Assembly: GCA_964392785.1 (NCBI GenBank)
Contig: CAYMRH010000003.1
Span: 1 to 56,324, forward strand
Origin: an uncultured Brevinematales bacterium
GTDB taxonomy: Bacteria; Spirochaetota; Brevinematia; Brevinematales; JAOACQ01
DNA: 56,324 nucleotides
Reading direction: 5' to 3'
Within the stretch, counting starts at the first letter, position 1. Each line of letters starts with the position of its first letter. This document shows, in pieces, positions 4,573-56,286 of the stretch. The position numbers were made by a program, and so were the translations under genes. The notes below the pieces were generated by a model that was not told where the DNA came from, made no database searches, and was given only the letters and a program-made list of their open reading frames with translations.

Positions 4573-5696
4573 GGCGCCTTGCCTCCGGGGTGATTATAGC
4601 ACGGGGGGGAGGGTTTTGGAAGAATATTCGTTGCCACGGAGGGCCCCACAAAATTGCCACGAAGACACAAAGGCACAGAGAGCTCATGATAACCGCTCAG
4701 GGGGCCAGGCTACGAGTCATTTCGATTTGCGACATCCGCTCGCCCTCTCGACGCGGCTCGGGGCAGGCTCGCGGGCAAAAAGGGCTCCGCCCTTTTCAAA
4801 CCGTGCGATTGACGCAGCCCTTGCCTTGATTAAATATTATATCGATTTCACATCACGGTGCGGAACCGCCAACTTCAGTAGGGGCGCGACCACTACTGCA
4901 CCGCGCCATTTCTTTTCATAAAATCAGTGATCCTGGCAGGATGGGCATGCGCTCGCCGCGCGGGCGAAAAGGGCTCCGCCCTTTTCAATCCCTATTCGCG
5001 CCGCTCTCTCAAGGGTAAGAGCGTCGGGCAGAAACGCCTGGGGTGAGAATCGGGGATATTTCGCATCCGGAGCCCACGACGGGCGACGTACTTTCGCCGA
5101 CAGGATGTCCAGGCGAAAGTGCTTCCATGGATTGAATTGATATACGTAATCCCGCACTCACAACATCCTGTTCGTGCGGGACCTCCGCATCCTGCTTCGG
5201 TCCCCTCACCGAAGGACATCACGTTCGGCAGGCTCAGTGCAGGCCCTGTCCTTCTCAGAAGAGCCGCATTTCTTCCCTGAAGAAGAAGCGAGAGCTAAGC
5301 GCGCGGAGATTGTTTTGATTTGGGATTGGCCTCCCGCGCATACGAGTGGCTAAGGCGCGTGGGGGATAGGAACGGAGAAACGGGAGAACGAATAGGTGTT
5401 AAAGAAATCCCGCTCTCCGAGCGTGCAGCACCTGCACGCAGGTGCTGGACGGCCGAGGAGAGCTAAGGCGCGCGAGGGGTAATGAACGGAAGAACGAATC
5501 GGCATAACAACTCGCTCTCCGTGGTTCGACACGGCCGCCGCGATAAATCAATGATCCGCCGTCGCCAGTATTCCTTGGCCCGAAATCCGAAGAATACCAC
5601 CATATGGCGTCAGAACTGTTTATTGGAAAATTATAGATAGCTGAAAAGGCAATACCTGTAATATGCAGCAGGAAAACTAGAATTATGCCTAACTTC
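4573..5696. repeat. 1.1 kb non-coding, repeat- and hairpin-rich region
   Basis: No credible ORF in any frame. Two copies of a ~30 nt hairpin repeat, CGCGGGCRAAAAGGGCTCCGCCCTTTTCAA, at 4771-4800 and 4961-4990. Degenerate ~70 bp direct repeats at about 5346-5420 and 5461-5525 (GCTAAGGCGCGYG...GAACGGARAA...GAACGAAT...CGCTCTCCG). A long imperfect hairpin at 5412-5463 (GCTCTCC...CAGCACCTGC ac GCAGGTGCTG...GGAGAGC). One copy of the CCACGAAGACACAAAGGCACAGAGAG motif at 4657-4683. Confidence 0.5.
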
Positions 5697-23383: not shown

Positions 23384-23916
23384 CCAGCCGGATCATTCTT
23401 TCGGGTTTCGGGGGCCAGGGCGTTTTGTCGGCCGGAACGATGATCGGCGAGGCGGGCATGGCGCAGGGCTTGAAATCCACGTTTTACCCGTCCTACGGCG
23501 CGGAAATGCGGGGCGGCACGGCCAACTGTCACGTGATATTGTCCGACGGGCCCATCGCATCCCCCGTCATTTCCTCGAACGCGGATATCCTGATCGCCCT
23601 GAACAAACCGTCCCTGGACAAATTCCTGCCGCGCACAAAGGAGGACGGACTGGTCCTTCTGAACACATCCGTCGTCAGGGAGGCGGTGGACACCGGAAAA
23701 CGGACGGTGATCCGCATGCCCGTGGAGGAACTGGCGCTGGAAAAGATCGGCAACCCCAGAATGGCGAACGTGATCCTGCTGGGCGCGCTGGCCAAGGCGA
23801 CCGGACTTTTGAAACTGGACGAACTGAAAAAATCCATCGCGGAAAAGTTCAAAAAGAAAGGCGATCAGGTGGTCCAATTGAACTGGAAAGCTTTGGAGTT
23901 AGGATATCAGTATTAG
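23380..23916 (+). CDS. 2-oxoacid:ferredoxin oxidoreductase gamma subunit
   Basis: Start ATG at 23380 overlaps the beta stop (ATGA). MTSRIILSGFGGQGVLSAG is the gamma-subunit N-terminus. The delta-alpha-beta-gamma order matches OorDABC/KorDABG-type operons. Confidence 0.8.
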   Translation: MTSRIILSGFGGQGVLSAGTMIGEAGMAQGLKSTFYPSYGAEMRGGTANCHVILSDGPIASPVISSNADILIALNKPSLDKFLPRTKEDGLVLLNTSVVREAVDTGKRTVIRMPVEELALEKIGNPRMANVILLGALAKATGLLKLDELKKSIAEKFKKKGDQVVQLNWKALELGYQY

Positions 23917-24021
23917 TTGTCAGTTGTCAGTTGTCAGTTGCTAGTTTCCAGTGGATATTGGAAAAATGTTGTTCTTTAATACCGGCAACTGATCACTGAC
24001 AACCAGCAACTGACCACTCGC
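23917..24021. repeat. Heptamer-repeat palindrome (GTTGTCA)n and inverted copy between the oxidoreductase operon and the DEAD-box helicase gene
   Basis: TTA GTTGTCA GTTGTCA GTTGTCA GTTGCTA GTTTCCA GTGG, a ~30 nt centre, then CAACTGATCACTGACAACCAGCAACTGACCACTCG (inverted heptamers). Likely a bidirectional terminator or regulatory hairpin. Confidence 0.5.
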
Positions 24022-25424: not shown

Positions 25425-25522
25425 CGACAGTTGCCAGTTGCCGGTTCCCGACCCGTGTTCGGGGCCGTTCACTGACAACTGGCAACTGATAACTGATTAA
25501 TGACAACTGATTACTGACAACT
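25425..25522. repeat. Second heptamer-repeat palindrome (GTTGCCA / TGACAAC units) in the 5' leader region of the helicase gene
   Basis: CGACA GTTGCCA GTTGCCG GTTCCCG acccgtgttcggggc CGTTCAC TGACAAC TGGCAAC TGATAAC TGATTAA TGACAAC TGATTAC TGACAAC. Same heptamer family as 23917-24021. Confidence 0.5.
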
Positions 25523-26054
25523 ACTTCTTAGCCGTCTCAGAAACCAGTTTTCCGACCACAGGGCGTTTGGACAATACGCCCTTGCCGTGCGGCGCGCCCT
25601 TGATCCGAGCGGTTATATCCGTCCCGATCTTTCCGCCGCGGTGTTCGCCTTTGGACCAGGCGCCCACGCCCGTCATGTCGTACACCAGTCCGTCCACGGA
25701 CAGATACATGGGCCGGCCGTCCTTGCCGTCATACTGGGCCAGTTCTTCGGCGGTAAACGCCGGGACCAGTTTGCCGACCACAGGCCGTTTGGACAATACG
25801 CCTTTTCCGTGCGGCGCGCCCTTGATCCGAGCGGTTATATCCGTCCCGATCTTTCCGCCGCGGTGTTCGCCTTTGGACCAGGCGCCCACGCCCGTCATGT
25901 CGTACACCAGTCCGTCCACGGACAGATACATGGGCCGGCCGTCCTTGCCGTCGAACTGGACCAGCTCGTTCGTCGTGAAATAGTTCGTGTTCCCGGCAAA
26001 CGCGATAGCGGCCGCGGTCAGGACCAGGCCCAGCGCCGTCAGTATTCGTTTCAT
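25521..26054 (-). CDS. Secreted protein with two tandem cytochrome b5-like heme/steroid-binding domains
   Basis: Signal peptide MKRILTALGLVLTAAAIAFA. Two nearly identical 74 aa units (FT.EEL.QYDGKDGRPMYLSVDGLVYDMTGVGAWSKGEHRGGKIGTDITARIKGAPHGKGVLSKRPVVGKLV) encoded by a near-perfect 222 bp tandem DNA duplication. Confidence 0.6.
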   Translation of the reverse strand: MKRILTALGLVLTAAAIAFAGNTNYFTTNELVQFDGKDGRPMYLSVDGLVYDMTGVGAWSKGEHRGGKIGTDITARIKGAPHGKGVLSKRPVVGKLVPAFTAEELAQYDGKDGRPMYLSVDGLVYDMTGVGAWSKGEHRGGKIGTDITARIKGAPHGKGVLSKRPVVGKLVSETAKK

Positions 26055-26115
26055 AGGTTATCCTCCGTTCTGATTTTCGTTACAACCGCCCCGGCCGGAT
26101 CCGGGACATCCGGTT

Positions 26116-26298
26116 TTACTTTTTGCAGGTGCTGATACCGAACGGAACGTACAGCGGGCACCAGCCGATGAGCGCGGTGGCCAGCGGCACGACGGCCAAG
26201 AGCCCCCACCAGGACTTGAAATAAATGCCCAACGCCGCGATCACGACGGCCAGAACGATGCGGATGATCCGGTCAACGGTTCCCACGTTCTTTTTCAT
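26116..26298 (-). CDS. DUF2892 / YgaP-like small membrane protein
   Basis: 60 aa. TALIGWCPLYVPFGISTC matches the DUF2892 C-terminal motif. Two TM helices. Confidence 0.55.
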   Translation of the reverse strand: MKKNVGTVDRIIRIVLAVVIAALGIYFKSWWGLLAVVPLATALIGWCPLYVPFGISTCKK

Positions 26299-33391: not shown

Positions 33392-33480
33392 GTTTTTAGC
33401 CGCAGAGACACGGAGGACGCAGAGTTTACATAATAGTAGGGGCTATGAGCCCCTCTGGCCCCAAGTATTTTTTTCGCCTC

Positions 33481-33693
33481 GCCGGCGTGGCCATAAGGGG
33501 GCCTGCCCCCTTAAACCCCGGGTGCGCGCGGTGCCCTCTCACGGGCAGGACATTGCGAAAGAAACGCGCGGGGGTAAGAATCGCAAACACTCGCCATCGT
33601 GGCGAGGGTTTGCTCATCGAAAGACATCCTGTCTTTCTTAGAAATACTTCGTTTCCTTCACGGAGTAGAATCGAGGGCACAGCGCCGGAAGCA
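33481..33693. repeat. Left ~215 bp inverted repeat bounding the AT-rich island
   Basis: GCCGGCGTGGCCATAAGGGGGCCTGCCCCCTTAAACCCCGG...TGCGAAAGAAACGCGCGGGGGTAAGAATCGCAAACACTCGCCATC...CTTCACGGAGTAGAATCGAGGGCACAGCGCCGGAAGCA. About 75% identical to the reverse complement of 44400-44626. Contains the hairpin TAAGGGGGC-ct-GCCCCCTTA. Confidence 0.6.
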
Positions 33694-33722
33694 AGAACGG
33701 AGAAGGAGTATTAGATATCCAT

Positions 33723-36218
33723 TTATAATTCATTTGCACCAATCACTGTGTCATAGAGTCCAATATCTTCGCCTTCGTGCTTGTTGACTCCGGTATAAAC
33801 CAGACTCGAATCTTCATAGCGTTTGAATTTATAAACGGCATCATTCATTAAAGCGCTGTTAAAAACGTTAAGGCTGACCAATAACTCGAAATCTTTCACA
33901 TTCAATCCCGTTACTTTCTTGAAAAGGCCTGGTTCCAATTGGGTAATTACATCCCGCAAAGTTCTCTCACGGAAATCAGTCAAATACATGAAAATCGGTA
34001 TACGAGTCGCAAATTTAATGAGTTTTTCTTGAATCTGCTTTCTGAGATTTTTATAGGTCTTTTCTTCTTCCGTCAATTTCTTCAGCTCTTTTTTAGTTAG
34101 GTCTCGGTCATTCGCTTCATTCTTTAACTTCTTGATCGCATCCGACTTGTTTATTATAGTTTCAATTTCCTGATTCAGTCTGCGGAAACCCTCGATGTTC
34201 ATAAGCGCCTGCATGGCTTTTTCATTGTTCATAAGTTTTTGGAGTGTGTCATTATCAACATTGACGAGAAGCGCGCTTTCCCATCGGCGCGCCAGTAACG
34301 TAGCGGTGGTTCCGCTCATAGCGATATCTAACACACCCGCCGGATCAATCTCTTTCATGCTCATTCCGTCATAACACAGTACCGGCAAGAAATGAATGAA
34401 ATCCGCTACTTTCTTTTCAGGATTCGTTTCATAAACACTCAGACGGCAGCTATAATCCGCGATTTGCCTTAAAGCCCTGTCCGGTGCAAAATCGAACACA
34501 TAGCACTCACTTTTAATGATTTCTTCTTTATTGGGTGATGAATGATCCGGATTTCTCACCGTCCAGGGCGACTGAACACGGAAAGCCGCTTGAAAGTAAG
34601 TTTCCGGACTGGATGTATTTCTCAGCATGAGAATACCAGTCCACGGTTTTATCGTAACGCCTGTGGTCAGTTTACCGCAGGAAAGCGTGATGGTTTTTGT
34701 TTTCAAAGGGTCGTCCATTGCCTCCAAAACTGGAGGCAGTGCGTCAACTCCTATACCCGCATCGGAACCGGCTGCTACAACAACCTGATAATCATGATAA
34801 AATTTATTCTGCTTTTGGCCAATCAGGGATTTCATGGCATGGCAGGCCGAAACACTGGGCATAAACCAGAGAGTATGGGTTAGTATATTCAATAAACGAG
34901 CGTCTGAAAACGGTAATGGGGGTTTCTGCGCACCCAGTTTTAAATTATCGACAGTTGTTTCCAGTAAGGAACCACGTATCAGATCAAGCCACTTCTGGAC
35001 TTCGTTTTCGTGTACAAATTTCGCACGACTGCCCAATCCCTCGGCGGAGAAAAATTCGTTTAAGTCAAACTCGTTGAATTCTCCTTTCAGGGCGATTTCC
35101 CTTATACTGTCGGGAAGCTGGTAAGTCAGCATGACCATCCTAGGCAGGGCCGCGTAGGGATTTTCTCCGTCCTTCCAATCTTCCTTTGCTTTCTGTTCGT
35201 CTGAATAAGTCCAGTTGAATATCTGTTCTTCGATAAATTCCCCCGATGTAATGGCCCGAAACGGGGTGCCTGAAAGGTATAGATAGTGGCTTGTTGTTAG
35301 CGGCATGATGCTTTCATCAAAATATTCAATACCTTCGCCCTCTGCAAAGGCAGTTTCTTTTCTATCTTCCGCCTCAAATAATTCCTTGGCATTCTCGCGC
35401 CATGCGCCGTAATGATACTCGTCAAAAATAACACAATCCCAATGAATAGCATGAGCCCATTCGTTTTTTAGTTTGATTCCGCCCGCCTCGTTACGCCCGA
35501 GGAAATCCTGAAAAGACGCAAAACAAATGAAGGGTTTGTTTTTCTTCACTTCCTCATAAGTCAAACCGTTACGGGAAATGAATTGCCAGCCTTTGAAATC
35601 AATATGGGACTTCAAATCTTCTTCCCAAGCGCTCTGGACGGCGGGCTTGAAAGTCAATATCAGGACTTTTGACCAGCCCATGGATTTGGCCAACTGATAA
35701 GAGGCGAAGGTTTTACCAAAACGCATTTTCGCGTTCCAGAGAAAGTGAGGTGTTTTACGCGGATTTTCCTTTTTGAATGATTTGAAATAGACCATTGCTT
35801 TTTTGACGGCCTCTTTTTGTTCCGGCCGCATGGAAAAATCCAGGGTGCGGGATTCCTCATTCAATTCACCCCTTTTCACAGCCAACACGGCGGCTTTTAC
35901 CTTCTCAACCGAACATTGAAACCACTCGCCCTCGGGGTTTTTTATACCGATTAATCTTAAATAGCGATGAACATCATGGTCAGTAAAGGAGCTTCCGTCT
36001 CCCCGCATGGCCGATTCTTCAAGAACGATCCGGTAAGGTAAAGGCCCCGGCCTGACCGTTGGGTACTGCTCGGCCACCCGCTCTTGGGCACTTTTTGTCG
36101 TATAACCGACCTTTAATAGCCCCTTATACTGCGGATTGGTGTCTTCATAAGCATAAATGATCGGCTTGACTTCGGGCCTTTGTGGAAATATTTCTTTAAC
36201 GGCCACTCTTATCTCCAC
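33723..36218 (-). CDS. T5orf172/GIY-YIG-like nuclease domain fused to an SF2 helicase/ATPase (restriction-subunit-like), 831 aa
   Basis: The N-terminus PIIYAYEDTNPQYKGLLKVGYTTKSAQERVAEQ resembles the T5orf172/GIY-YIG domain. Walker A AKMRFGKTFASYQ and motif II VIFDEYHYG. Last gene of the five-gene operon. Confidence 0.6.
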   Translation of the reverse strand: MEIRVAVKEIFPQRPEVKPIIYAYEDTNPQYKGLLKVGYTTKSAQERVAEQYPTVRPGPLPYRIVLEESAMRGDGSSFTDHDVHRYLRLIGIKNPEGEWFQCSVEKVKAAVLAVKRGELNEESRTLDFSMRPEQKEAVKKAMVYFKSFKKENPRKTPHFLWNAKMRFGKTFASYQLAKSMGWSKVLILTFKPAVQSAWEEDLKSHIDFKGWQFISRNGLTYEEVKKNKPFICFASFQDFLGRNEAGGIKLKNEWAHAIHWDCVIFDEYHYGAWRENAKELFEAEDRKETAFAEGEGIEYFDESIMPLTTSHYLYLSGTPFRAITSGEFIEEQIFNWTYSDEQKAKEDWKDGENPYAALPRMVMLTYQLPDSIREIALKGEFNEFDLNEFFSAEGLGSRAKFVHENEVQKWLDLIRGSLLETTVDNLKLGAQKPPLPFSDARLLNILTHTLWFMPSVSACHAMKSLIGQKQNKFYHDYQVVVAAGSDAGIGVDALPPVLEAMDDPLKTKTITLSCGKLTTGVTIKPWTGILMLRNTSSPETYFQAAFRVQSPWTVRNPDHSSPNKEEIIKSECYVFDFAPDRALRQIADYSCRLSVYETNPEKKVADFIHFLPVLCYDGMSMKEIDPAGVLDIAMSGTTATLLARRWESALLVNVDNDTLQKLMNNEKAMQALMNIEGFRRLNQEIETIINKSDAIKKLKNEANDRDLTKKELKKLTEEEKTYKNLRKQIQEKLIKFATRIPIFMYLTDFRERTLRDVITQLEPGLFKKVTGLNVKDFELLVSLNVFNSALMNDAVYKFKRYEDSSLVYTGVNKHEGEDIGLYDTVIGANEL

Positions 36219-36245
36219 CTACTTAATTTTTATAGCATTGTAATA

Positions 36246-37751
36246 TTAAGCATTATCTGAATCCATGGGACGAATCATCGATTCGATGAACTCAATATCC
36301 TTGTCACTTAAACCAAAATGCGAGTATAACATTTTATCTGTCCATTTCTTTTTCATATTCATTTTTGGAACAAATGCAAATCTATCCTTTGTTATATGTT
36401 GCGTGTTTTTCCGCAACCCAACAAGAAATCTTACAAATCTTGTTCTTATATATCTGTTTAAATTATCCGCTTCATCCTGATTATCGTATGCACCAACGAC
36501 AATATATGTTTCGGTGCAGGCGCTCATAGGGGGCGCAATTATTGGTTTTCCCATAATCATACGTGGATAATCTCTGGTTTCACCGCCCTCACCATAGCCC
36601 ATAGATAGAAACACTTTCCATAAAGGAATTAATTCAAAACCATTTTCTATATCCTTTCTTTCGATCTTACCAACAGTTTTATTGGCATATAGCTTAATAT
36701 TACCTTTACCAGTTGGTTTGATAAACGTCCTTAGTCCGAAAGGTTTTTGCCGGGATACTTGTTCGCTGAGCGATGGATATTTTTTCTCCAATACCTTATC
36801 AAGGATTGATATCGCTTTGTTAAAACGGACAAATGTATCAAATTGATTAAGCTTTCGTTTCATCGAGTCTTCATTGTTATTCATATTTGTCGTAACAAGA
36901 CAGTCTCCTTGGTAATCGCGTTCCCATAAGAAGTAACAAACACCGCCAATAACTTTTACTCCGGGAAATACATCCGATGCAATAGGATAATCAACCAATC
37001 TTGATATTCTTTTATCATTCAACATGCTGTCTCTGAATTCATCAAGGCCTTTGCCTCCTGCAAACCAACGCGAAGGAATAATAAAGCTGAGATATCTTGG
37101 ATTTAATTTCTTGGCAGTATTGACAAATAATTGATAAATTGGGGATGAGCCTGTGCTATCACCGGCATCACTCAATTGATACGGCGGGTTGCCTACAATC
37201 ACGTCAAATTTCATATTAAATAACTCCTCCGTCTGTTCGGTATGGATAAACTGATACGCATGCGTTTCCAGCGTTTCGCCGCGATCATATTCAACTTGGC
37301 TTGCGCCACAATAAACACATTTACCGTCTTCCCATTTGTGTTTGATGCTTTTAAACATGATATTGCCAACTTCATTTGTAAAAGCACTGCAAACGGAATA
37401 CTTTCCATCCGCTATTTTTGAACAGTATAGCGACCTTCGTGATAAAAGAGCGGTCAGCTCGGTAATGGCAATACCGAATATCTGTTTGGTGTAAATATGA
37501 TTTAGACGCTTTTGCATACTCGGAATTTCTTTTTCAAGACCCGCAATAAGCCGTTTGGCGATTTCCCGCAGGAATACGCCTGATTTTGAAACAGGATCAA
37601 GAAATGTCACATTTTTGTTTTTCCAGAGATCTGCAGGCAGTAAATCCAGTATTCTGTTGGCCAACTGTGGCGGTGTAAACACCTCGTCACTACTTAAATT
37701 GGCAAGGCAAGATAAAACATCCGGGTTATAGCCGGTATTAATCAGCATCAA
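36246..37751 (-). CDS. N6-adenine DNA methyltransferase (gamma-class, Eco57I/TaqI-like), 501 aa
   Basis: Motif X DEVFTPPQLANRIL, motif I FLDPVSKSGVFL and motif IV FDVIVGNPPYQ. The C-terminal half is a probable target-recognition region. Confidence 0.75.
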   Translation of the reverse strand: MMLINTGYNPDVLSCLANLSSDEVFTPPQLANRILDLLPADLWKNKNVTFLDPVSKSGVFLREIAKRLIAGLEKEIPSMQKRLNHIYTKQIFGIAITELTALLSRRSLYCSKIADGKYSVCSAFTNEVGNIMFKSIKHKWEDGKCVYCGASQVEYDRGETLETHAYQFIHTEQTEELFNMKFDVIVGNPPYQLSDAGDSTGSSPIYQLFVNTAKKLNPRYLSFIIPSRWFAGGKGLDEFRDSMLNDKRISRLVDYPIASDVFPGVKVIGGVCYFLWERDYQGDCLVTTNMNNNEDSMKRKLNQFDTFVRFNKAISILDKVLEKKYPSLSEQVSRQKPFGLRTFIKPTGKGNIKLYANKTVGKIERKDIENGFELIPLWKVFLSMGYGEGGETRDYPRMIMGKPIIAPPMSACTETYIVVGAYDNQDEADNLNRYIRTRFVRFLVGLRKNTQHITKDRFAFVPKMNMKKKWTDKMLYSHFGLSDKDIEFIESMIRPMDSDNA

Positions 37752-38409
37752 TTAGCCTCAGAAAATGAGTAACGGGGTACTCTCTGACAGGATCGGGTAT
37801 AAATACATCATCCCCTAGGTCGGAAAAAAGCGGCTCGCTCTTTATTTCTTCATGGGCTAAAAGTCCGTGAAAAGTAAAATCGCGCCTTTTGATATTGCTT
37901 CCATTAACGGGCGACCATTCGGAAAATGTGATGGGATTCTGAGTCACCCCAACGGTTTTAAGAGTCAGCGCGTCGCCCCAAATGATATTTTTACTTAATA
38001 TGAACTTGACCGAATCGAGGCATTCTTTCTTGATCTGATTTTGGAATATAGTCACATATCTTTCATTAAATATCTCGAAAAGACGGTTCCGGCAGTCCTG
38101 AACGTTATCTTCCAGAATATCGATGCCGTAAACACTGGAAATAACCAAAACGGCATTACGCTCATATTCAATCTGGCTTTTAGCATACTTCGTTTCAACC
38201 ATGCTTAATTTGCGCCGGAGAATTACGGCTAAAAAGTTGCCTGCTCCACAGGCCGGTTCCAGAAAACGGGATTCAATTCTTTCCGTTTCTTGTTTGACAA
38301 GATCCAGCATAGCATTGACTTCCCGCGACGCGGTATAGACCTCGCCGTGGTCAGTTACACGCTGTTTGGAAACGACTTGGGATGCTTGTTTCATTTGCGT
38401 CATATTCAA
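37738..38409 (-). CDS. Truncated methyltransferase-like paralog (SAM-binding motifs X and I present, catalytic NPPY absent), 223 aa
   Basis: HGEVYTASREVNAMLDLV (motif X-like) and FLEPACGAGNFL (motif I). No NPPY/DPPY; the corresponding position reads NIIWGDAL. Overlaps the downstream MTase gene by 14 nt. Confidence 0.55.
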   Translation of the reverse strand: MNMTQMKQASQVVSKQRVTDHGEVYTASREVNAMLDLVKQETERIESRFLEPACGAGNFLAVILRRKLSMVETKYAKSQIEYERNAVLVISSVYGIDILEDNVQDCRNRLFEIFNERYVTIFQNQIKKECLDSVKFILSKNIIWGDALTLKTVGVTQNPITFSEWSPVNGSNIKRRDFTFHGLLAHEEIKSEPLFSDLGDDVFIPDPVREYPVTHFLRLIDAD

Positions 38410-39143: not shown

Positions 39144-39757
39144 GATATGATAACCCCATATTCCTTCTGAAGCAATGATATTTCATTAGGTAACTTATAG
39201 TCTAAATCATTAATGAACTCGATTATTTCGCACACATGAAGAGTCTTTTTATTGTGAATTGGCAGGGCAATGTATTCGATTGGAATAACAATATTTATTA
39301 GATAATCAAGAGCCTCCTCGCTCCAATATCTTTTAGCCAAATTAACATCCAATAAACCGCTTTCAACAAAAACCTTAATGTTCATAAAATAATTAATTAT
39401 CTTTCTTCTGTAAGCATCTAAATTATTGTCATTATTTGAAGAATTTATACACTCAAGATATTTATTAACTAAAATAATTAATTTATCCTTCTTTACTATA
39501 TCAGTATCATCACTATAAATATAGCATTTATGATCCCTTGCAAAATCACAAAGTGATTTTATTGCTTGGTGCATATCTTTGGTTGAATATTGTTCAACTG
39601 CCTTAATAAAGTTGTTGTATTTTGTATCTTTTCTTGATTTTAAGATTGTGTATATTGATAAAATGAAAGCAAGCAACGCAATGATTACATCCGCATGATT
39701 TATGAGTAATCTGATTGGCCATAGAAGCCAATTAACAATAGTACAAAGATTGCCCAT
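39140..39757 (-). CDS. Hypothetical membrane-anchored protein, 205 aa; first gene of the island operon
   Basis: N-terminal TM helices (LCTIVNWLLWPIRLLINHADVIIALLAFILSIYTIL) and a soluble C-terminal domain with no recognised motif. Confidence 0.5.
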   Translation of the reverse strand: MGNLCTIVNWLLWPIRLLINHADVIIALLAFILSIYTILKSRKDTKYNNFIKAVEQYSTKDMHQAIKSLCDFARDHKCYIYSDDTDIVKKDKLIILVNKYLECINSSNNDNNLDAYRRKIINYFMNIKVFVESGLLDVNLAKRYWSEEALDYLINIVIPIEYIALPIHNKKTLHVCEIIEFINDLDYKLPNEISLLQKEYGVIIS

Positions 39758-39976
39758 ACATATCCAACTATTTATTATAATGCAATCACATTATACCCCC
39801 TCCCCCTCCATCTCGTCAAAGCATGATTAGGATTCAGGATATAGGATTTAGGGTTCAGAGGGGTAGGCAGGTCCTTGTTAGGGTCTAGAGGCCAAGATTT
39901 GGGATTCAGGGGGATAGACGGGTCATAGTAGGGATCAGAGGACTGGATTTAGATTTAGATAAAATATTCCGCTTGT

Positions 39977-40147
39977 CTAGAGTAATGATAAAAATACTGT
40001 AATGATAATTATTACTAAAAATAATACAACAGGAATAAGAATTAATAGTTGGCAACCGGTTAATTTTAATTTTGCGCCACAATTCGGACATATTTTTGCG
40101 CTAGAACTGATTTCTTTACCACATTCTCTGCAATTGACTAGAGCCAC
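39977..40147 (-). CDS. Small zinc-ribbon membrane protein, 56 aa, below the ORF-track cutoff
   Basis: Hand-translated: V(GTG)ALVNCRECGKEISSSAKICPNCGAKLKLTGCQLLILIPVVLFLVIIIITVFLSLL*. A CxxC-x12-CxxC zinc ribbon plus a C-terminal TM helix. AGGAG lies 6 nt upstream of the GTG. The overlapping 61 aa ORF listed at 39906..40091 is judged spurious. Confidence 0.35.
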   Translation of the reverse strand: MALVNCRECGKEISSSAKICPNCGAKLKLTGCQLLILIPVVLFLVIIIITVFLSLL

Positions 40148-40187
40148 ACCGCTCTCCTTTCAGCTCGTTTTCTAAGCGAAACCAATT

Positions 40188-40540
40188 ATACCCCCTCCCC
40201 CGCCCCGGCGTCAAAGCATTATTAGGATTCAGGGTCTAGGATTTAGGGTTCAGTTATATATTAACCAGCTGGCTGCCCCTAAATCCTGGATCCTGACCCA
40301 TAAACTGCCCTTAAAAACGAGGTCATCGGCCCAAATAACGAGGCTGTCCTCCTTAATAACGAGGACAACGCCCTTCCGAACGAGGTTACCGGCCTTCGGA
40401 ACGGCAATGCCGGGGTTCAGAAGGAGGATATCCTCCCTTTTCAGGGGAACAGCGGGGTTCTGAGGGGGAATGGCCTCGCTTTTTGGGGGAATAGTGGGGT
40501 TCTGAAGACCAATTTCGGGGTTTTGGCAGCCGCAGTGACA
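40188..40540. repeat. Composite repeat copy A upstream of the small zinc-ribbon gene: ATTATACCCCCTCCCCC box, TTAGGR-like degenerate repeats, then a 21 bp tandem array
   Basis: CCAATTATACCCCCTCCCCCGCCCCGGCGTCAAAGCATTATTAGGATTCAGGGTCTAGGATTTAGGGTTCAG at 40188-40260. About ten ~21 bp units follow from 40315 (AACGAGGTCATCGGCCCAAAT, AACGAGGCTGTCCTCCTTAAT, AACGAGGACAACGCCCTTCCG, AACGAGGTTACCGGCCTTCGG, ...GGGAATAGTGGGGTTCTGAAG). Confidence 0.55.
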
Positions 40541-40935
40541 CAGAGACGCAGAGGATAACCCTCGTCGAAGTTTATCCTGAGCGAGCGTTGAAAGCGCGAG
40601 TCGAAGGGCTAGGGATGACCATGCTCGTTTCCTGACGTCAGAGGCGCTTGGAGCGCCGGCCGCGTAGCGCCACGGACGCTCCTAAGAGGCGGGCTGGGCT
40701 CTGACTAAAGTGTCAGGTGAATACTCTCACGGTACAATTAATCATTTAACTCTACCTTTATAACTCTTTTCAAGAAATACCCCACAATGTTCTCACATAA
40801 CTGTTCGGGGCTTGGCGTAATGGGCGCTTTTCAGCACAAAACTTGATAAGAAACACAGTGTTTATATTTAGCACATAATTTCAAACGAAATACGTCCGCC
40901 CCTATTACATCAAGCACTTGTTAACGGTTCAAGTA

Positions 40936-43608
40936 TTACTGTAATTTTATTGTTTTTTTACAGTTGGGATAATTCGTGCAACCTAAGAAATCTCCATATT
41001 TCCCTGTTCTCTTTATCATATAGCCGCTATAGCAATTTGGGCAGAGGATTTCATCATCTAATATTTCTAAATTGTTAAACGTTTGATCGCAATTAGGATA
41101 ATGTGAACAGCCTAGAAAGTGAGTGCCATTTGATGGGTTTTGTCTAATAATAAGCTTCCCTGTTTTACAGTATGGACAATTTGTAGTTTTGAGCGATCCG
41201 TCAGCAGAAGTTAACAAATAAATATTATCATTTATTATTTCTTCAATAAATAATGAAGGTTCAGTCGGGGTAAGTAATACAACCTCATTTTTAGTTCTTG
41301 TTAACGCTACATAAAACAACCTACGTTCCTCCGCAAATCTAAACTCTTCGTCATCACTGAGCAAAAGAGATAAGATTGGGTCGTCAGTCATTTTATTGGG
41401 AAATCCAAGCAATTGATTCTTAAGATTTAATACGATTACATTGTCCGCCTCAGTTCCTTTTGACTTGTGTACGGTTAAATATTTAATGTCCATATCTTCA
41501 AATCCTTTAACTACTAATTTACCAGTTCTCTCAATGTATTTAACCCTACTATTTGTGGTTTTCTTTATTAATTCGTTAATATCAAACCCATGTCTGCCTA
41601 AAACTAAGATTGATTTGCTTCCATATCTATTTACAAGATTTTGTATTTCGTTTATGAATGAATCTTCCATCTCTTCTTGCGTGTAATAAACAATTCTAAC
41701 AGGGTCTTTCAAAGGTTCTTTCTTAGACTTAGGGGATTTTGATATTTGTTTGGGATTTTTTTGAATGTATTTTGATGCAATGTCAATAAGTGCTTGTGAA
41801 TTTCTGTATGTCTGTTCAATCAATAGTTGTTCATGTATTCCTAGGTATTTTTCGAAATTACTGAATAAAGATATATCGCTACCTGCAAAACGATAAATCG
41901 ATTGCCAATCGTCTCCAACACAAATCAATTTTGCACCAGATAAATCACGAATTTCCTTGATCAAATGAAATCGTGAATACGAAATGTCTTGATATTCATC
42001 TACTATTATATACTGATAGTTGAATTTTATTTTATTACTTTTTATGATACCAGTAGCCATATTTATCATATCATTGAAATCAATCTCATTTCTTTCTTTT
42101 AAAGTTTGGTCGTATTTTTCAAGAATTGGAAGCGCAAATTGCAAGAACATTGCTTGACGTTCTAGCATAAAGTCGCTTTGGAATTTTGTTTTATCCGAAA
42201 ACAATTTGACTAACGAAATCTTGTTTAAACCTCTTGATTTACTTAGATTAACAAAGCTTTCAATAAGGTTATTAATTTCCTTGCCGATATTTATGTCATT
42301 GATCGATATTTCTGTGTAAATTATTTTTGGATCTCTCGGCTTGAAAGCAACCTTTTCCGCTTCCAACATTTCCTTCAGCTTCTTTAACAATATTTTATCT
42401 CTATTGTAATAGGAATATGTTTCTAGTAATTTGGTGCCGTAGGCTTTGTGTGTTTCCCTTTTTAATTGCATAGTTTCTAAATATTTTTGTTCATTAAAAG
42501 GTGTGAGCCATTTTGCCCGATTATATTCGTCTACGCCAAAATGTTCTAAATATATTTCATAATCTGTTAGAAAAAAGTCAGGACGATACATTGCCTGTCC
42601 ATAAGGGTATGGTTTTTCATACTCATACTCAACTCCATTCAGATATAAATAGTTAGCTATTATTAGTTCCTCAACACTTTTAACCCTCTCTCCTTGCATG
42701 GTATTTAGATTTGGTTTTGAAACGATGTTTGAAGGTTCGCATTTTGATTTCAATGTTTGAAAATCAATCCCCTTTTCTGTATCTATTTTTTCTCCCAAAG
42801 ACTTGTAATTGTCAAATTCTTCAGGAATATTCATATAGCATGCAACGTATTGAATAAAAGATTGCAATGCTTCCATATCGTTGAAAATGTCTGTTTTTAA
42901 ATACTCTTTGATCACTCCACTCATTGTGTTTTCATTTGTAACGGCAGGAATGACCGAATAGTATTTTTTTATTATATCATAACCAAGTTTATGAAAAGTA
43001 GTTGCCAGTGCACCAAATCCTAATTTATGAATTCTTTCATTTAACTCTTCTACGGTTTTTTTTGTAAAAGATAATAACAAGATGTTATTGGGATTGATAT
43101 TTTTCTGTTCAATTAGATATTTCACTTTTCCAAGGATTGTAAGTGTTTTACCCGAACCCGCACCAGCAATTATTAAATTCGAGTATTCGTCTGTTATCAA
43201 TGCAGTCCGTTGCTGATCATCTAGCTTTTTTCCTTCGATATTGTCAAAATACTTTTCTAATATTTCTTTTTGTTTATTAACGTAATTTTGGTTATATCGA
43301 GCAATATATCCGTCAAAATCACTGAATATATCATTAAATGTCTTAACGGTTTCTTCTTTCTTGTAATAATAAGTTTTGTTAGCAAAATACTTACTCACAT
43401 CCGAATATTCTGTTTTTATCTGGTCACGGTGTACCCAAGTAACATAATCGTTAAGTGATTGAATACGATGAATAAATTCAGTAATCAGTTGTAAGTTCTC
43501 TAAATAAACAGCGTCTTGATACTTTCTCCTTTCAGATAGTTGCTGGAAAACAATAGAGAAAGCAATTATCACAAACAGGGCGAAAATAAGAGTTAGAATC
43601 GTAACCAC
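40936..43608 (-). CDS. Membrane-anchored UvrD/Rep-family (SF1) helicase with an internal restriction-endonuclease-like insert and two C-terminal topoisomerase-type C4 zinc ribbons, 890 aa
   Basis: N-terminal TM helix VTILTLIFALFVIIAFSIVF. Motif I LIIAGAGSGKTLTILGK and motif II YQYIIVDEYQDISYSRF. Insert around ...YRPDFFLTDYEIYLEHFG... . The C-terminus reads NCPYCKTGKL...GCSHYPNCD and LCPNCYSGYM...GCTNYPNCK. Confidence 0.7.
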   Translation of the reverse strand: MVTILTLIFALFVIIAFSIVFQQLSERRKYQDAVYLENLQLITEFIHRIQSLNDYVTWVHRDQIKTEYSDVSKYFANKTYYYKKEETVKTFNDIFSDFDGYIARYNQNYVNKQKEILEKYFDNIEGKKLDDQQRTALITDEYSNLIIAGAGSGKTLTILGKVKYLIEQKNINPNNILLLSFTKKTVEELNERIHKLGFGALATTFHKLGYDIIKKYYSVIPAVTNENTMSGVIKEYLKTDIFNDMEALQSFIQYVACYMNIPEEFDNYKSLGEKIDTEKGIDFQTLKSKCEPSNIVSKPNLNTMQGERVKSVEELIIANYLYLNGVEYEYEKPYPYGQAMYRPDFFLTDYEIYLEHFGVDEYNRAKWLTPFNEQKYLETMQLKRETHKAYGTKLLETYSYYNRDKILLKKLKEMLEAEKVAFKPRDPKIIYTEISINDINIGKEINNLIESFVNLSKSRGLNKISLVKLFSDKTKFQSDFMLERQAMFLQFALPILEKYDQTLKERNEIDFNDMINMATGIIKSNKIKFNYQYIIVDEYQDISYSRFHLIKEIRDLSGAKLICVGDDWQSIYRFAGSDISLFSNFEKYLGIHEQLLIEQTYRNSQALIDIASKYIQKNPKQISKSPKSKKEPLKDPVRIVYYTQEEMEDSFINEIQNLVNRYGSKSILVLGRHGFDINELIKKTTNSRVKYIERTGKLVVKGFEDMDIKYLTVHKSKGTEADNVIVLNLKNQLLGFPNKMTDDPILSLLLSDDEEFRFAEERRLFYVALTRTKNEVVLLTPTEPSLFIEEIINDNIYLLTSADGSLKTTNCPYCKTGKLIIRQNPSNGTHFLGCSHYPNCDQTFNNLEILDDEILCPNCYSGYMIKRTGKYGDFLGCTNYPNCKKTIKLQ

Positions 43609-43689
43609 AATTTATCTTCCCGAATTATGTTTATGTTACATCGGGTTTGTTTCTTTTGCCTGACCGCTAACTCATATATATACGAATCC

Positions 43690-44120
43690 CATTATACCTC
43701 CTCCCCCTCCGCAGCGTCAAAACCATATTAGGATTCAGGGGCTAGGGTTTAGGATTTAGGAGGGTAGGCAGGTCCTCATTAGGGGCCAGTATTTAGGATA
43801 CAGGGAAATATGCACCAACTGATGTGTTCCTGAATCCTAATCCCTAAAACCCGACCCCTAAACTCTAACCCCTAAATCCTAGACCCTAACCACCACCCCC
43901 GGAACCCTAAAACCTGAATCCTGACCCCTAACATGGCCTACGGAAGGGGAACGTTGCCACTCTGAACGCCATCATTGCCCTTCCGGATAGCAACGTTGCC
44001 CTACAGAACGAGGACATTGGCCTTCCGGACCCCAACGTCGGGGTTCAGAAGGAGGATGTCCTCCCTTTTTAGGGGAATAGTGGGGTTCTGAGGACCAATT
44101 TCGGGGTTTTTTGGTCGTAA
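43690..44120. repeat. Composite repeat copy B upstream of the UvrD-like helicase gene; includes an inverted block of TTAGGR repeats
   Basis: CATTATACCTCCTCCCCCTCCGCAGCGTCAAAACCATATTAGGATTCAGGGGCTAGGGTTTAGGATTTAGG... at 43690-43800. CCTAAATCC/CCCTAAAAC units read in the opposite direction at 43830-43930 (potential long hairpin). 21 bp array at 43940-44120 (AACGCCATCATTGCCCTTCCGG, AACGAGGACATTGGCCTTCCGG, ...GGAATAGTGGGGTTCTGAGG). The 3' part is near-identical to 40400-40540. Confidence 0.55.
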
Positions 44121-44399
44121 ACCACAAAGACACAAAGGAACACAAAGTCAGCTGCGGAGGGCGCGGAGAGCCGGAGGGTTGCCCTCGACCGCCCCCTTCG
44201 ACACGGCCGCCGCGGTGAGCCGCGTCGAACCGTCAGGGCATCGCCTCGGTCGCGGTTGGCGAGCGGAGCCTGCGGTGAGCGAAGCCGAGACTTTTACACC
44301 GAGCCTTGCCCCGAGCAACGTCGAGGGGTAGCCGAGGTGCCATCCTGGCTCCCGTGCACTGGCGCTAGAACATCCATGTTCGCGCCAGTACCTACGGCC

Positions 44400-44626
44400 T
44401 CGTGCCTCCGGCGCTGTGCTCACGATTCTACTCCGTGAAAGAAACGAAGCGTTCCTGAGAAGGGCAGGATGCCCTTCGATGAGCGCACCCTCCGCAGGAT
44501 GCGGAGTGTGCGCGATTCCCACCCCCGTGAGTTTCTTTCACAACGCTTTGCCCATGAAGAGAGCATAGCGCGATTCCGGGGTATAAGGGGGCGGGCCCCC
44601 TTAATGCCGGCGCGGCGAGCGCACGC
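44400..44626. repeat. Right ~225 bp inverted repeat bounding the AT-rich island
   Basis: Reverse complement aligns with 33481-33693 at about 75% identity. Contains the hairpin TAAGGGGGC-gg-GCCCCCTTA and CGATTCTACTCCGTGAAAGAAACGAAGCG, which matches CTTCACGGAGTAGAATCG in the left copy. Confidence 0.6.
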
Positions 44627-44653
44627 CAGCCCGGCGAGGGCACTCCAGCGGTG

Positions 44654-45499
44654 TCACCGCACAATCACATTATCAATCAACCTCGTCTTTCCAAAAAACA
44701 CCGCCAGGGCGATCACCGCTCCGCCGGTCACGGCCTTCAGGTCCTCCAGGGTTTCCGGGTCCGCGACGCTCACGTAGTCGATCTTCGCGTAGGGAATTTC
44801 CGTCCGGATCATGTCCCGCACGGTTTTGACGATCACCGAGGCGTCCCGTTCCCCCGTCCGGATCATGTCCGAACCGGCCGTCAGCGCCTGCCAGAGCACG
44901 GGCGCGTCCTTTCGTTCTTTTTCGCTCAAGTACCGGTTTCGGGAACTCATGGCCAGCCCGTCTTTTTCCCGCACCACCGGCATGACCCGGACCTGAACGG
45001 GCATGTTCAGGTCCTGGACCATTTTCCGGATAATCACGGATTGTTGGTAGTCCTTCTGCCCGAAGTAGGCCGTAGCGGGCCGGACAATATTGAACAATTT
45101 GGCCACCACCGTGGTCACGCCGCGGAAATGCCCCGGCCGGGACAGACCGCACAGGTGGTCGGGCAATTCTTCCACGTCCACGTACGTTTCAAATCCTTCC
45201 GGATACATGTGCCTTGCGGACGGGTAAAAAAGAAAATCGCATTTTTCCTTTTCCAGAAGCGCTTTGTCGTTTTCGAACGGCCGGGGGTAGCGGCTCAGAT
45301 CCTCGGCGGGACCGAACTGGGTCGGGTTGACGAAAATGCTCGCCACGACAATATTATTTTCCTTTCGCGCCTGCCGGACCAGGCTCAAATGCCCCTCGTG
45401 CAGGGCGCCCATGGTGGGAACGAACCCGATGGTCTTTTTTTTCCGGATCAGTTGCTCGGACAGGACCGACATTTCGGAAGGCTTCTTGATGATTTTCAC
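44654..45499 (-). CDS. panC: Pantoate--beta-alanine ligase
   Basis: 281 aa. FVPTMGALHEGHLSLV and the downstream FVNPTQFG are PanC signatures. Confidence 0.9.
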   Translation of the reverse strand: MKIIKKPSEMSVLSEQLIRKKKTIGFVPTMGALHEGHLSLVRQARKENNIVVASIFVNPTQFGPAEDLSRYPRPFENDKALLEKEKCDFLFYPSARHMYPEGFETYVDVEELPDHLCGLSRPGHFRGVTTVVAKLFNIVRPATAYFGQKDYQQSVIIRKMVQDLNMPVQVRVMPVVREKDGLAMSSRNRYLSEKERKDAPVLWQALTAGSDMIRTGERDASVIVKTVRDMIRTEIPYAKIDYVSVADPETLEDLKAVTGGAVIALAVFFGKTRLIDNVIVR

Positions 45500-45521: not shown

Positions 45522-45854
45522 TCATTGGTTCAGGAGTTTATCAATGGATATTTTCAATTTGGGAATTTCATCACGGATAGCGCTCCAGACCAGCGCCAGG
45601 TTGACGCCAAAATACTCGTGAATCAGTTTGTCTCGCATGCCGGTGATCTTACGCCAGGGAATGTCCGGATGCCCGGGTTTTTCACCGTCCGGGATGCTTT
45701 TAGCGGCTTCGCCGATGATTTCAAGACTTCGGATAAAGGCCCGCTGTTTCAACTCATCATTTTCCAAATCCTTAAAGGTCATGGCATTCGTTTCGCGAAG
45801 CAGGAATTCATTTTCCTTCGCAATGTGAGAGCAATAGAATTTATAGTTTTTCAT
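45522..45854 (-). CDS. HepT-like (DUF86) toxin, nucleotidyltransferase substrate-binding protein
   Basis: 110 aa. RDKLIHEYFGVNLALVW is the DUF86/HepT Rx4HxY motif region. Confidence 0.75.
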   Translation of the reverse strand: MKNYKFYCSHIAKENEFLLRETNAMTFKDLENDELKQRAFIRSLEIIGEAAKSIPDGEKPGHPDIPWRKITGMRDKLIHEYFGVNLALVWSAIRDEIPKLKISIDKLLNQ

Positions 45855-54355: not shown

Positions 54356-54371
54356 TGTTTCACGTGAAACA
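54356..54371. promoter_or_regulatory. parS centromere-like site (perfect palindrome)
   Basis: TGTTTCACGTGAAACA, a 16/16 match to the canonical parS palindrome, about 275 bp downstream of parB. Confidence 0.75.
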
Positions 54372-54646: not shown

Positions 54647-55513
54647 CTACCGCGACTTATGCGCGATGTGGCGGTAAATGGTCTCCAGTTCCTGCTTCGA
54701 GAAGTAGAAGATCTCCACCCGCCCTTTCTTGTCCGTTCCCCGGATCTCGACCTTGGCGCCCACGGCCCGGACAAACTTTTCCTGGATGTCTGCCAGCTTG
54801 TGGTCTTTGCGCTTTTTTGTTTCACGTGAAACGCCCTTTTTCCTCGCACCGTCCAGCGCCTCGCGCGCGGCATCTTCCGCCTCGCGGACGGAAAGCCCCT
54901 TTTCCGCGATCCGGTCCGCCAGGGTGATCTGCTCGTCAATGTTGGCCAGGGACAATATCGCGCGGGCGTGGCCTTCCGTAATGACCCCGGTCATGATCTT
55001 TTCCCGCACGCTCTCGGGAAGTTTCAGGAGGCGCAGGGTGTTCGCCACGGAACTGCGGTCCTTCCCGATCTTTTTGGCGAATTCGTCCTGGGTCGCTCCC
55101 AACCGGTCCATGATTTCCCGGTAGGCCAGGGCACGCTCCACGGCGTTCAGGTCGTCCCTCTGGATGTTCTCGATCAGCGCGATCTCCAGCTTGTCTTCCT
55201 CGGAATAATTCCGGAGGATCACCGGGATTTCCAGAAGGCCCGCCATCTTGGCCGCGCGCAGCCGCCGTTCTCCCGCCACGAGTTCGTAGCGGCCGTCCCC
55301 CAGGTCGGTCACGATCACGGGCTGGATCACGCCCTTTTCCCGGATGGACCCGCACAACTCTTTAAGCGATTCCTCGGAAAACCGTTTGCGGGGCTGGTAG
55401 CGGTTGGGCAGGATTTTATGGATGTCCACCTTCGTGGCGCTGCCCTGATCGTCCGGCCGGATTTCGCCCTCGTTCACCAGGGCCATGATGCCTTTGCCGA
55501 GTCCGTGTTTCAT
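54647..55513 (-). CDS. parB: Chromosome partitioning protein ParB (Spo0J)
   Basis: GLGKGIMALV N-terminus, ParB box ...IQPVIV..., HTH. 4 nt overlap with parA. Confidence 0.9.
   Translation of the reverse strand: MKHGLGKGIMALVNEGEIRPDDQGSATKVDIHKILPNRYQPRKRFSEESLKELCGSIREKGVIQPVIVTDLGDGRYELVAGERRLRAAKMAGLLEIPVILRNYSEEDKLEIALIENIQRDDLNAVERALAYREIMDRLGATQDEFAKKIGKDRSSVANTLRLLKLPESVREKIMTGVITEGHARAILSLANIDEQITLADRIAEKGLSVREAEDAAREALDGARKKGVSRETKKRKDHKLADIQEKFVRAVGAKVEIRGTDKKGRVEIFYFSKQELETIYRHIAHKSR
54818..54833. promoter_or_regulatory. Second parS site within the 3' end of parB
   Basis: TGTTTCACGTGAAACG, a 15/16 match to the palindrome, inside the parB coding sequence. B. subtilis spo0J also carries an internal parS. 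Confidence 0.65.
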
Positions 55514-56286
55514 GCCGTCACCCCGCTTTTTTTCAGGAATTCCCTGCCGAACTGCAGGTAGGCGTCCGCGCCCTGGCTTTTGTAATCGTATTCGTAAATG
55601 GCCAGACCGTGGCTCGGCGCTTCCGACAGGCGGACGTTCCGGGGCACGATCGTATCGTACACCTTTTCCTTGAAGTAGTTTCTCACCTCTTCCACCACCT
55701 GCTTGGACAGCTTGGTCCGGGGATCGAACATCGTGATGACCACGCCCTCGATGGAGAGGTCCCTGTTGGGGCCGCTTTTCACGAGCTTGATGGCTTTCAA
55801 AAGCTGCGTGAGCCCTTCCATGGCGTAGAATTCGCTCTGCATGGGAATGAGCACGCTCTGCGCCGCCACCAGGCCGTTCAGCGTGAAGAGCCCGAGCGAG
55901 GGCGGAGTGTCGATGAGGATGAATTCATAATCATCCTTCACCGTGTCCAGCGCCTCGCGCAGGATGTATTCCCGGCGCGGCGAACCCATGAGCTCGATCT
56001 GCGCGCCGGCCAGGTCCAGACTCACCGGCACCAGGTGAAGGTATTCGTAACGCGTGGGCAGGATCACGTCTTTGAGCGTTTTCGCGCCGATGAGCACCTC
56101 GTAGATTCCGCCCCCGGTGCGATCCCGGAAATCCACGCCCAGCCCGCTGCAGGAATTGCCCTGGGGGTCAATGTCGATCAACAGCGTGCGTTTCTGTGCG
56201 TTGGATAAAAACGCGGCCAGGTTGATGGCCGTGGTGGTTTTGCCGACGCCGCCTTTCTGGTTCGCAATCACGATCACTTTCGCCAT
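55510..56286 (-). CDS. parA: Chromosome partitioning ATPase ParA (Soj)
   Basis: MAKVIVIANQKGGVGKTTTAINLAAFL deviant Walker A. 258 aa. Confidence 0.9.
   Translation of the reverse strand: MAKVIVIANQKGGVGKTTTAINLAAFLSNAQKRTLLIDIDPQGNSCSGLGVDFRDRTGGGIYEVLIGAKTLKDVILPTRYEYLHLVPVSLDLAGAQIELMGSPRREYILREALDTVKDDYEFILIDTPPSLGLFTLNGLVAAQSVLIPMQSEFYAMEGLTQLLKAIKLVKSGPNRDLSIEGVVITMFDPRTKLSKQVVEEVRNYFKEKVYDTIVPRNVRLSEAPSHGLAIYEYDYKSQGADAYLQFGREFLKKSGVTA

Follow-up and report, generated by a model that had tools for sequence, protein, structure and literature searches.

In an uncultured Brevinematales bacterium, two arrays of short tandem repeats lie on either side of a helicase gene within a low-GC gene island. 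The initial annotation of the 56,324-nucleotide stretch of DNA that contains them (here called the window) found this position suggestive and read the arrays as binding sites for a replication initiator (iterons) or a regulator. The locus therefore raises the question of whether the arrays are origin elements associated with the helicase, sites for a DNA-binding protein, parts of a gene or a transcript, or repeats that are simply carried along. We show that they are paralogous, noncoding tandem repeats with a strict 21-bp period and that each is the distal part of a composite intergenic block. This block belongs to the 60%-GC, spirochaete-like host lineage, where it lies downstream of panC; in this genome it has been fused to a near-consensus σ70 promoter and duplicated, so that foreign, AT-rich transcription units in a defense island have a copy in front of them.

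The array units are spaced at exactly 21 bp

Position-weight matrices (PWMs), each trained on the other arrays only, together with a layout of the sequence in 21-nucleotide rows, resolved ten units in the first array (array B; unit starts 40316 through 40505) and eight in the second (array C; unit starts 43944 through 44091). A third array, of about 16 units, is present on L034, a Logan contig from a second sample (DRR438497) beside SRR12133404, whose short Logan contigs are identical to the window. Every unit was recovered at exactly 21-bp spacing with a score of 9 to 22 bits, and no spacing of 20 or 22 bp was found by the PWM scan of arrays B and C. The L034 array is also in strict register, which is exact over at least 11 units. 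The repeat is sharper than the annotated run of about ten units of 20 to 22 bp. Across the 56-kb window, only one further site reached 15.0 bits, and none exceeded that score.

Tandem Repeats Finder, which had been proposed as a check on the period, reported periods of 21 bp (40307-40403) and 42 bp (40411-40507) in array B and of 42 bp (43950-44029) in array C. Autocorrelation at lags of 21 and 42 was 0.50 to 0.63, compared with 0.25 for shuffled sequence (z = 7 to 11), and arrays B and C gave the strongest lag-21 signals of the whole window. At lag 7, autocorrelation was at background inside the arrays (0.22 to 0.25) and reached 0.44 to 0.47 in the flanking hairpins. The annotated arrays are confirmed, and the two-helical-turn phasing noted previously is real and exact.

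Unit by unit, C4 corresponds to B3, C5 to B5, C6 to B6, C7 to B9, and C8 to B10, and array C lacks two units that are present in array B. Ungapped alignments of the two arrays gave identities of 83.3% (40370-40465 versus 43998-44093) and 88.9% (40453-40524 versus 44039-44110), so that the earlier estimate of 85 to 95% over the 3' 100 bp was essentially right, if slightly generous.

Each unit is a degenerate palindrome

The unit consists of a degenerate 20-bp palindrome, in which a half-site of about GAAGGSCAAY is followed by RTTGSCCTTC, plus one base (N). Clear examples are GGAGGATATCCTCC, GAGGAATTCCTC, and GGACCCCAACGTCGGGGTTC. Mean identity between units is only about 50%, no column is invariant, and the best column holds 1.5 bits. 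Of the arm positions, 51% are complementary, compared with an expected 25%, and the dyad is fixed in register: arrays B, C, and L034 all place one axis of symmetry between register positions 9 and 10 and another on position 20. With one base after each 20-bp palindrome, successive dyad axes are 10.5 bp apart, and every axis faces the same side of B-DNA.

In the L034 array, within-unit complementarity was 84, compared with 67.8 for shuffled arms, and 8 of 5,000 shuffles were as high. In array B, within-unit complementarity was no better than that of arms paired across different units, with no covariation beyond the consensus.

Minus-strand RNA folded better than shuffled sequence in arrays B and C (z = -3.8 and -4.6), and plus-strand RNA did so less strongly (z = -1.5 and -2.7), but in the L034 array the opposite strand was better than the minus strand (z = -3.3 versus -2.1). 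The G.T and A.C mismatches in the arms are balanced (33 versus 31), with no strand bias. Balanced mismatches and the lack of a consistent strand preference in folding fit duplex DNA rather than one RNA strand. The heptamer hairpins beside the arrays also folded better than shuffled sequence (z = -2.8 to -6.6).

The arrays are noncoding

The initial annotation described a heptad-like reading frame with no usable start codon and judged a DNA-level role more plausible than a protein. Array B is as described: the frame is open for about 150 codons, with no start codon in about 110 codons. Array C contains two stop codons. Only the L034 array has an ORF with an ATG, in a frame that is open for at least 160 codons and from which Logan calls a 128-amino-acid (aa) minus-strand ORF. 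Differences between near-identical units fall at codon positions 1, 2, and 3 in numbers of 35, 49, and 38; the second position is the most variable, and most differences alter the amino acid in both frames. A search of 5.8 billion proteins with the L034 ORF returned only the ORF itself, and a search of 1.84 billion representatives with the plus-frame peptide returned only two unrelated coiled-coil heptad or repeat proteins (E about 1e-4). Pfam had no match to six-frame translations. A concatenated six-frame query against the 5.8 billion proteins found nothing at E≤1, but this is a weak test, since short matches could not become significant.

The long open frames, and a register that is a multiple of three, are what a small heptad-repeat protein would give, whether encoded now or until recently by the L034 minus-strand ORF or by the plus-strand NEDIGLP frame. 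We rejected a heptad-repeat protein gene, and consider even a recent one very improbable, given the missing start in array B, the stops in array C, the absence of an excess of wobble-position changes, and the lack of homologs and Pfam matches. The heptad-like "N-V" appearance of the peptide on both strands follows from the palindromic center AAC/GTT. As the annotation judged, a DNA-level role is more plausible than a heptad-repeat protein.

Each array is the distal part of a composite block

Alignment and self-BLAST defined a larger module in three same-orientation copies, A (39784-39960), B (40177-40555), and C (43683-44147). In minus-strand order, a full block consists of GC-rich host-type DNA, a CACAGAG motif, the 21-mer array, a heptamer hairpin, a promoter, and an AT-rich gene (Table 1). 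The part with the promoter and heptamers occurs three times and the array only in copies B and C, copy A having the same promoter and heptamers without it. The initial annotation had missed the palindromic nature of the units, this larger repeated block, the minus-strand-facing promoter, and the third, partial copy at 39784-39960.

Table 1. Features of the composite block and its copies in the window
Feature	Coordinates	Strand	Description
Array B	40316..40525		Ten 21-bp units in strict register; degenerate 20-bp palindromes; GC 55%
Array C	43944..44111		Eight 21-bp units; paralogous and colinear with array B
Hairpin B	40222..40303		27-nt-arm inverted repeat of TTAGGRT/AYCCTRA heptamers, between array B and promoter B
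Hairpin C	43728..43933		Longer inverted repeat of heptamers; separates array C from promoter C
Heptamer block, copy A	39827..39960		51-nt higher-order period; no complementary arm; no 21-mer array
Promoter A	39790..39819	-	TTGACG-N18-TATAAT, 11/12; upstream of DUF4760/TM/methyltransferase/restriction-enzyme operon starting at 39757
Promoter B	40185..40214	-	TTGACG-N18-TATAAT, 11/12; upstream of 56-aa zinc-ribbon membrane protein gene (40147-39977)
Promoter C	43691..43720	-	TTGACG-N18-TATAAT, 11/12; upstream of helicase gene (43608-40936)
CACAGAG-type motif, GCAGCCGCAGTGACACAGAGACGCAGAGG	40526..40555		Abuts distal end of array B
CACAGAG motif variant, CACAAAGACACAAAGGAACACAAAG	44112..44147		Abuts distal end of array C
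GC-rich host-type intergenic DNA	40556..40700		Within AT-rich island; CCTGAGC...GTCGAAGG hairpin motif
GC-rich host-type intergenic DNA	44148..44399		Between element X and array C

Promoters A, B, and C, which are predicted from sequence, are the best three σ70 matches within 39 to 45 kb, with predicted minus-strand transcription starts at about 39783, 40178, and 43684. Both arrays lie upstream of such a promoter, at about 100 and 225 bp from the -35 element, and the identity between copies B and C is 83 to 89% in the array and 83% in the promoter. In all three promoters, the -35 and -10 elements are separated by a conserved tract of G-runs, read on the coding strand as GGGGGAGGGGG or GAGGGGGAGGAGG; such a spacer is unusual for a σ70 promoter and could be a candidate G-quadruplex or binding site.

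The elements around the arrays recur elsewhere. The loop of hairpin B, TTAATATATAA, is conserved in the related strain represented by L034. Besides the pair that abuts the arrays, related CACAGAG-type copies occur at 33395-33425 and 4650-4680; the recurrent CACARAGA-type motif is GCCGCAGNGACACNGAGNACGCAGAG, and a solo copy lies precisely at the left island edge, beside the stop codon of the ABC permease gene. The CCTGAGC...GTCGAAGG motif belongs to a REP-like family of GC-rich hairpins in host spacers (7250, 7930, 40576, 54555, and L034:1833), and one copy is also inside the AT-rich island, between the helicase gene and array B. Other heptamer hairpins in host spacers, with heptamers such as CAGTTGT/CAACTGA and ACTGACA/ACTGATA, are found at 23913-24015, 25425-25525, and L034:2374-2406. 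A separate tandem duplication of a 222-nucleotide unit (1.9 copies, 95% identity) at 25543-25975 overlaps the ORFs at 25521-26054 and 25587-26135.

The block lies in a foreign gene island within a host chromosome

Genes from about 33.7 to 43.7 kb have a GC content of 31 to 46%, compared with about 60% in the rest of the window, and all are on the minus strand. Pfam and PADLOC identified a type IIG-like restriction-modification (RM) system, a DUF4760 protein, membrane proteins, a zinc-ribbon peptide, and a UvrD/HelD-type helicase. The last is helicase-IV-like, with two topoisomerase-type zinc ribbons. It shares 70 to 79% identity with proteins whose named members come mostly from Bacteroidota, such as Flavobacterium and Dysgonomonas, which indicates that it is foreign. 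The RM system spans three ORFs at 33723-38409, encoding a T5orf172+ResIII protein of 831 aa, an Eco57I-type methylase of 501 aa, and an N-terminal fragment of an MmeI-type methylase of 223 aa; it may be frameshifted or genuinely split. The scanned island ORFs yielded no helix-turn-helix (HTH) or ribbon-helix-helix (RHH) gene. Nor did the ORFs scanned include an integrase, transposase, or recombinase, or those scanned in the window a RAYT (Y1 transposase). We saw no target-site duplications or terminal inverted repeats.

The island lies between panC and ABC-transporter genes in a host that encodes the spirochaete flagellar sheath protein FlaA, NrdD, and parAB with parS. Two canonical parS sites at 54356-54371 and 54818-54833 (TGTTTCACGTGAAACA, matched exactly by one of them and with a single mismatch by the other) are in and just downstream of parB (54647-55513), which is followed by parA (55510-56286) in a chromosomal partition locus. 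This locus is 10 kb from the arrays, the array units do not match parS, and there are no par genes in the island.

Inverted copies of an element that we call X, 79% identical to each other, bound the island. X is about 220 nucleotides long and forms several hairpins; copies are found at 33474-33696 (plus strand), 44400-44618 (minus strand), and L034:1531-1746, with a partial copy at 4944-5068 (plus strand). Its hairpins keep their pairing by compensatory changes at 16 of 63 predicted pairs, for example CTCGCCA..TGGCGAG versus CTCCGCA..TGCGGAG. X has no Rfam family, and every copy abuts a low-GC (foreign) gene block. A low-GC gene (34% GC, 642 aa, no Pfam match) at 5697-7625, in high-GC surroundings, adjoins the partial copy of X and likely represents a further foreign insertion.

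A related strain carries the array on a short contig that lacks the helicase gene

L034 is 97% identical to the window through panC and X and diverges just beyond X. Its array is colinear with arrays B and C, lies downstream of panC, and is followed by a heptamer hairpin and then by other heptamers, not the σ70 promoter. The short contig that carries it does not contain the helicase gene. Conversely, a second contig (L061, 34% GC) encodes a helicase 79% identical to that of the window and has no array, hairpin, or promoter of the block type. The presence of the array on a contig without the helicase, together with the repeat-free helicase locus, indicates that the array belongs to the spacer downstream of panC in the host lineage and is tied neither to the helicase nor to the island genes. 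Arrays stand on both sides of the helicase gene simply because every transcription unit has one copy of the block upstream of it, and the idea that this position matters is not supported. L034 also differs from the window in lacking the gene for a HepT-like (HEPN) toxin between pyrG and panC (45522-45854, versus L034:502-641), while the nucleotidyltransferase gene is kept.

Among the data searched, only two samples, both of this lineage, contained the array family. An exact scan of 185,579 species genomes (one per GTDB species) with a 19-mer from the array gave four matches, all due to chance by their context. In JGI metagenomes, the promoter-heptamer signature had no matches and the degenerate unit consensus had 26 single matches with no 21-nucleotide periodicity. 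Scans of IMG/VR gave nothing relevant. Rfam 15 had no match at the gathering score in the window and only noise-level matches at E≤5 in 39700-44700. The search of plasmids and phages for similar iterons that had been suggested returned no BLASTN match among 72,556 plasmids and 50,697 phages.

The replication-iteron reading is not supported

In favor of replication or copy-control iterons around an initiator or helicase gene, the 21-bp period and the two same-orientation arrays on either side of one gene resemble plasmid P1, in which the incC and incA arrays lie around repA. Beyond this likeness, the iteron reading is largely refuted. The flanked gene is no initiator but the Bacteroidota-like UvrD/HelD-type helicase, the homologous locus of which is free of repeats. 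Iterons are directly repeated, conserved units of 17 to 22 bp, whereas the array units are palindromic and share about half of their positions. Pfam and PADLOC searches of all island ORFs found no adjacent Rep gene. The arrays sit between panC and ABC-transporter genes in a chromosomal setting that includes nearby parAB and canonical parS sites, and cumulative GC skew is monotonic, with no inflection that would mark an origin. Together with the lack of plasmid or phage matches, these results leave a role as iterons scarcely credible.

A possible phased row of binding sites and the competing explanations

The other half of the original interpretation, an array bound by a regulator, is still the best functional guess, as a prediction. 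Our leading, though tentative, explanation is that each array is a phased row of dyad-symmetric sites. It would act at the level of DNA, its individually weak sites (9 to 22 bits each) being coated cooperatively by a putative dimeric host DNA-binding protein, and the coated array would separate the upstream gene from the strong promoter as a boundary or operator. The direct repeats of 83 to 89% identity, 3.6 kb apart, would also provide homology for gain or loss of the helicase unit. Nearly as likely, and itself only possible, is that the array is a functionless passenger minisatellite, a hairpin-prone palindromic unit whose copies are gained and lost in register through slipped-strand mispairing or unequal recombination and that was duplicated with the promoter when the island was assembled. 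The 34 units, which are only about 50% identical, contain no indels, where a rough estimate predicts several neutral ones, which suggests that the phase is constrained; the stops, missing start, and codon-position counts show that a reading frame is not the source of this constraint. In all three arrays the palindromic consensus and the colinear order of units are maintained, the dyad axes stay 10.5 bp apart, within-unit complementarity in L034 exceeds that of shuffled arms, and the mismatches point to duplex DNA. The information per unit is in the range of transcription-factor sites, both window arrays are 100 to 225 bp upstream of 11/12 promoters, and the related strain has retained the array. 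Against binding, the units have no invariant core and are more degenerate than typical operators or iterons, a feature also expected of a passenger; no HTH or RHH gene is among the island ORFs scanned; and pairing within the units of array B adds nothing to the consensus. Unit number (8, 10, and 16) and the distance to the -35 element vary, and the near-identical units D2, D5, and D7 of L034 imply recent in-register amplification. Copy A has its promoter without an array, so that this promoter, predicted to be active, does not require one. The promoter of the block does not follow the array and hairpin in L034. The similar B-C identity of array and promoter gives no sign of extra constraint on the array, and the region beyond X has been replaced, not conserved, between strains that are 97% identical in panC. 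The family is absent from all other data searched (species genomes, JGI metagenomes, IMG/VR, plasmids, and phages), with no deeper conservation than one lineage in two samples, and host intergenic DNA is so rich in other repeat types that a neutral origin is easy to imagine.

Third in rank, and unlikely, is an RNA-level cluster of hairpins in the minus-strand 3' tail of panC or the helicase gene, where the small palindromes and heptamer hairpin would stop or insulate read-through or protect the 3' end before the next promoter. All three arrays are downstream of a same-strand gene, and in the window a promoter comes next; no canonical terminator was found between stop codon and array; and minus-strand folding in the window is stronger than that of shuffled sequence. 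Such a structure would be REP/BIME-like or a "cluster of hairpins" terminator, a concept that has been described (PMC8355165). However, the preferred strand differs in L034, the mismatches are balanced, the arrays begin 410 to 540 nucleotides past the stop codons of the upstream genes and have no U-tract, and hairpins need no exact 21-nucleotide period. More improbable still is an integron-like capture platform, in which array, hairpin, and σ70 promoter form a junction module, foreign AT-rich defense genes are inserted cassette-wise behind a host-type promoter at an X-bounded hotspot, and the array is a candidate site for recombination or protein assembly. The block or a part of it does mark the 5' boundary of each transcription unit, with the CACAGAG motif at its far side and as a solo copy at the left edge; inverted X copies flank the island, strain divergence starts just after X, and GC-rich host-type DNA lies between the foreign genes. 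Yet the ORFs scanned include no integrase, transposase, or recombinase, target-site duplications and terminal inverted repeats were not seen, only two or three cassettes and one comparison strain are available, and ordinary homologous recombination explains the duplication equally well.

Several other candidates were rejected. CRISPR has a different period, and the arrays have no spacers. Against Tn7 or Mu transposon ends stand the lack of a transposase among the ORFs scanned and the tandem, palindromic nature of the units; integron attC sites would call for an integrase, and their core sites fit poorly; a MITE would have terminal inverted repeats or target-site duplications. An invertible promoter was dismissed because the promoter is outside the inverted repeat, a plus-strand promoter in the hairpin loop because there is no -35 element, and a CsrA/RsmA sponge RNA because the GGA motifs that are present come with neither a plus-strand promoter nor a strand bias. 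A ParB/parS or ParR/parC centromere does not agree with the mismatch to the parS consensus or the lack of par genes in the island.

At present the arrays are a well-defined, lineage-restricted intergenic minisatellite of unproven function and a worked example of how a two-turn "iteron-like" array need not be an origin. The strict two-turn phasing of indel-free degenerate palindromes is a clean signature of helical-phase constraint and would be an easy handle for fishing out a DNA-binding protein. Defense genes of Bacteroidota type with 30% GC, each behind one host-type promoter block in a 60%-GC host, also suggest a simple route to expressibility after transfer.

Comparison with known systems

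The arrays share with the iterons of P1 (incC/incA), pSC101, and R6K tandem units of about 20 bp spaced two turns apart, in two same-orientation arrays around one gene. Iterons, however, are direct, well-conserved repeats beside a rep gene, with an AT-rich unwinding element and DnaA boxes, on a replicon, whereas the arrays are palindromic, about 50% alike, chromosomal, without a Rep gene, and a property of the host lineage rather than of the island genes.

Phased sites for dimeric proteins are known from the ArgR ARG boxes (18 bp plus 3 bp), tandem MetJ boxes, and ParR on parC of pSK41 and R1. As in those systems, head-to-tail dyads face one side of the helix upstream of a promoter and, as individual sites, are weak enough that binding would need cooperativity. 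Here, however, there is no cognate protein, no par genes, and no arg or met regulon context, the sequences are unrelated, and there are 8 to 16 units rather than the 2 to 5 of ArgR and MetJ. The chromosomal ParB also has its own canonical parS sites.

The REP and BIME elements of enterobacteria and pseudomonads are likewise imperfect, GC-rich intergenic palindromes downstream of genes, prone to form hairpins and strain-variable in copy number (PMC3333891), and the array units are imperfect intergenic palindromes within the 20 to 40 nucleotides or so that characterize that class. BIMEs combine alternating REP orientations with variable linkers, number hundreds per genome, and are linked to RAYT transposases (PMC3333891). 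The arrays differ in their period of exactly 21 bp, in numbering only two in 56 kb, and in that no RAYT was seen in the window. Among dispersed, multicopy, modular intergenic repeats are the pneumococcal BOX element (A-Bn-C) and the mycobacterial MIRU minisatellites. Like these, the block is modular (a motif, variable tandem units, and a terminal hairpin), intergenic, and strain-variable in unit number, but unit length and sequence are different, and it was seen at one locus plus a local duplicate. Tandem heptanucleotide repeats of the TAACTGA type occur in Beggiatoaceae, Cyanobacteria, and Bacteroidetes (PMC4679880), and the other heptamer hairpins in the host spacers resemble these direct repeats, here in a spirochaete-like genome. 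The hairpins adjacent to the arrays are, like the TAACTGA repeats and the STRR repeats of cyanobacteria, made of tandem heptamers (TTAGGRT), and 21 is 3 × 7, but the 21-mer arrays have no 7-nucleotide periodicity and are a distinct repeat. In their broader affinities, the arrays belong to a known class, the bacterial intergenic palindromic tandem repeats.
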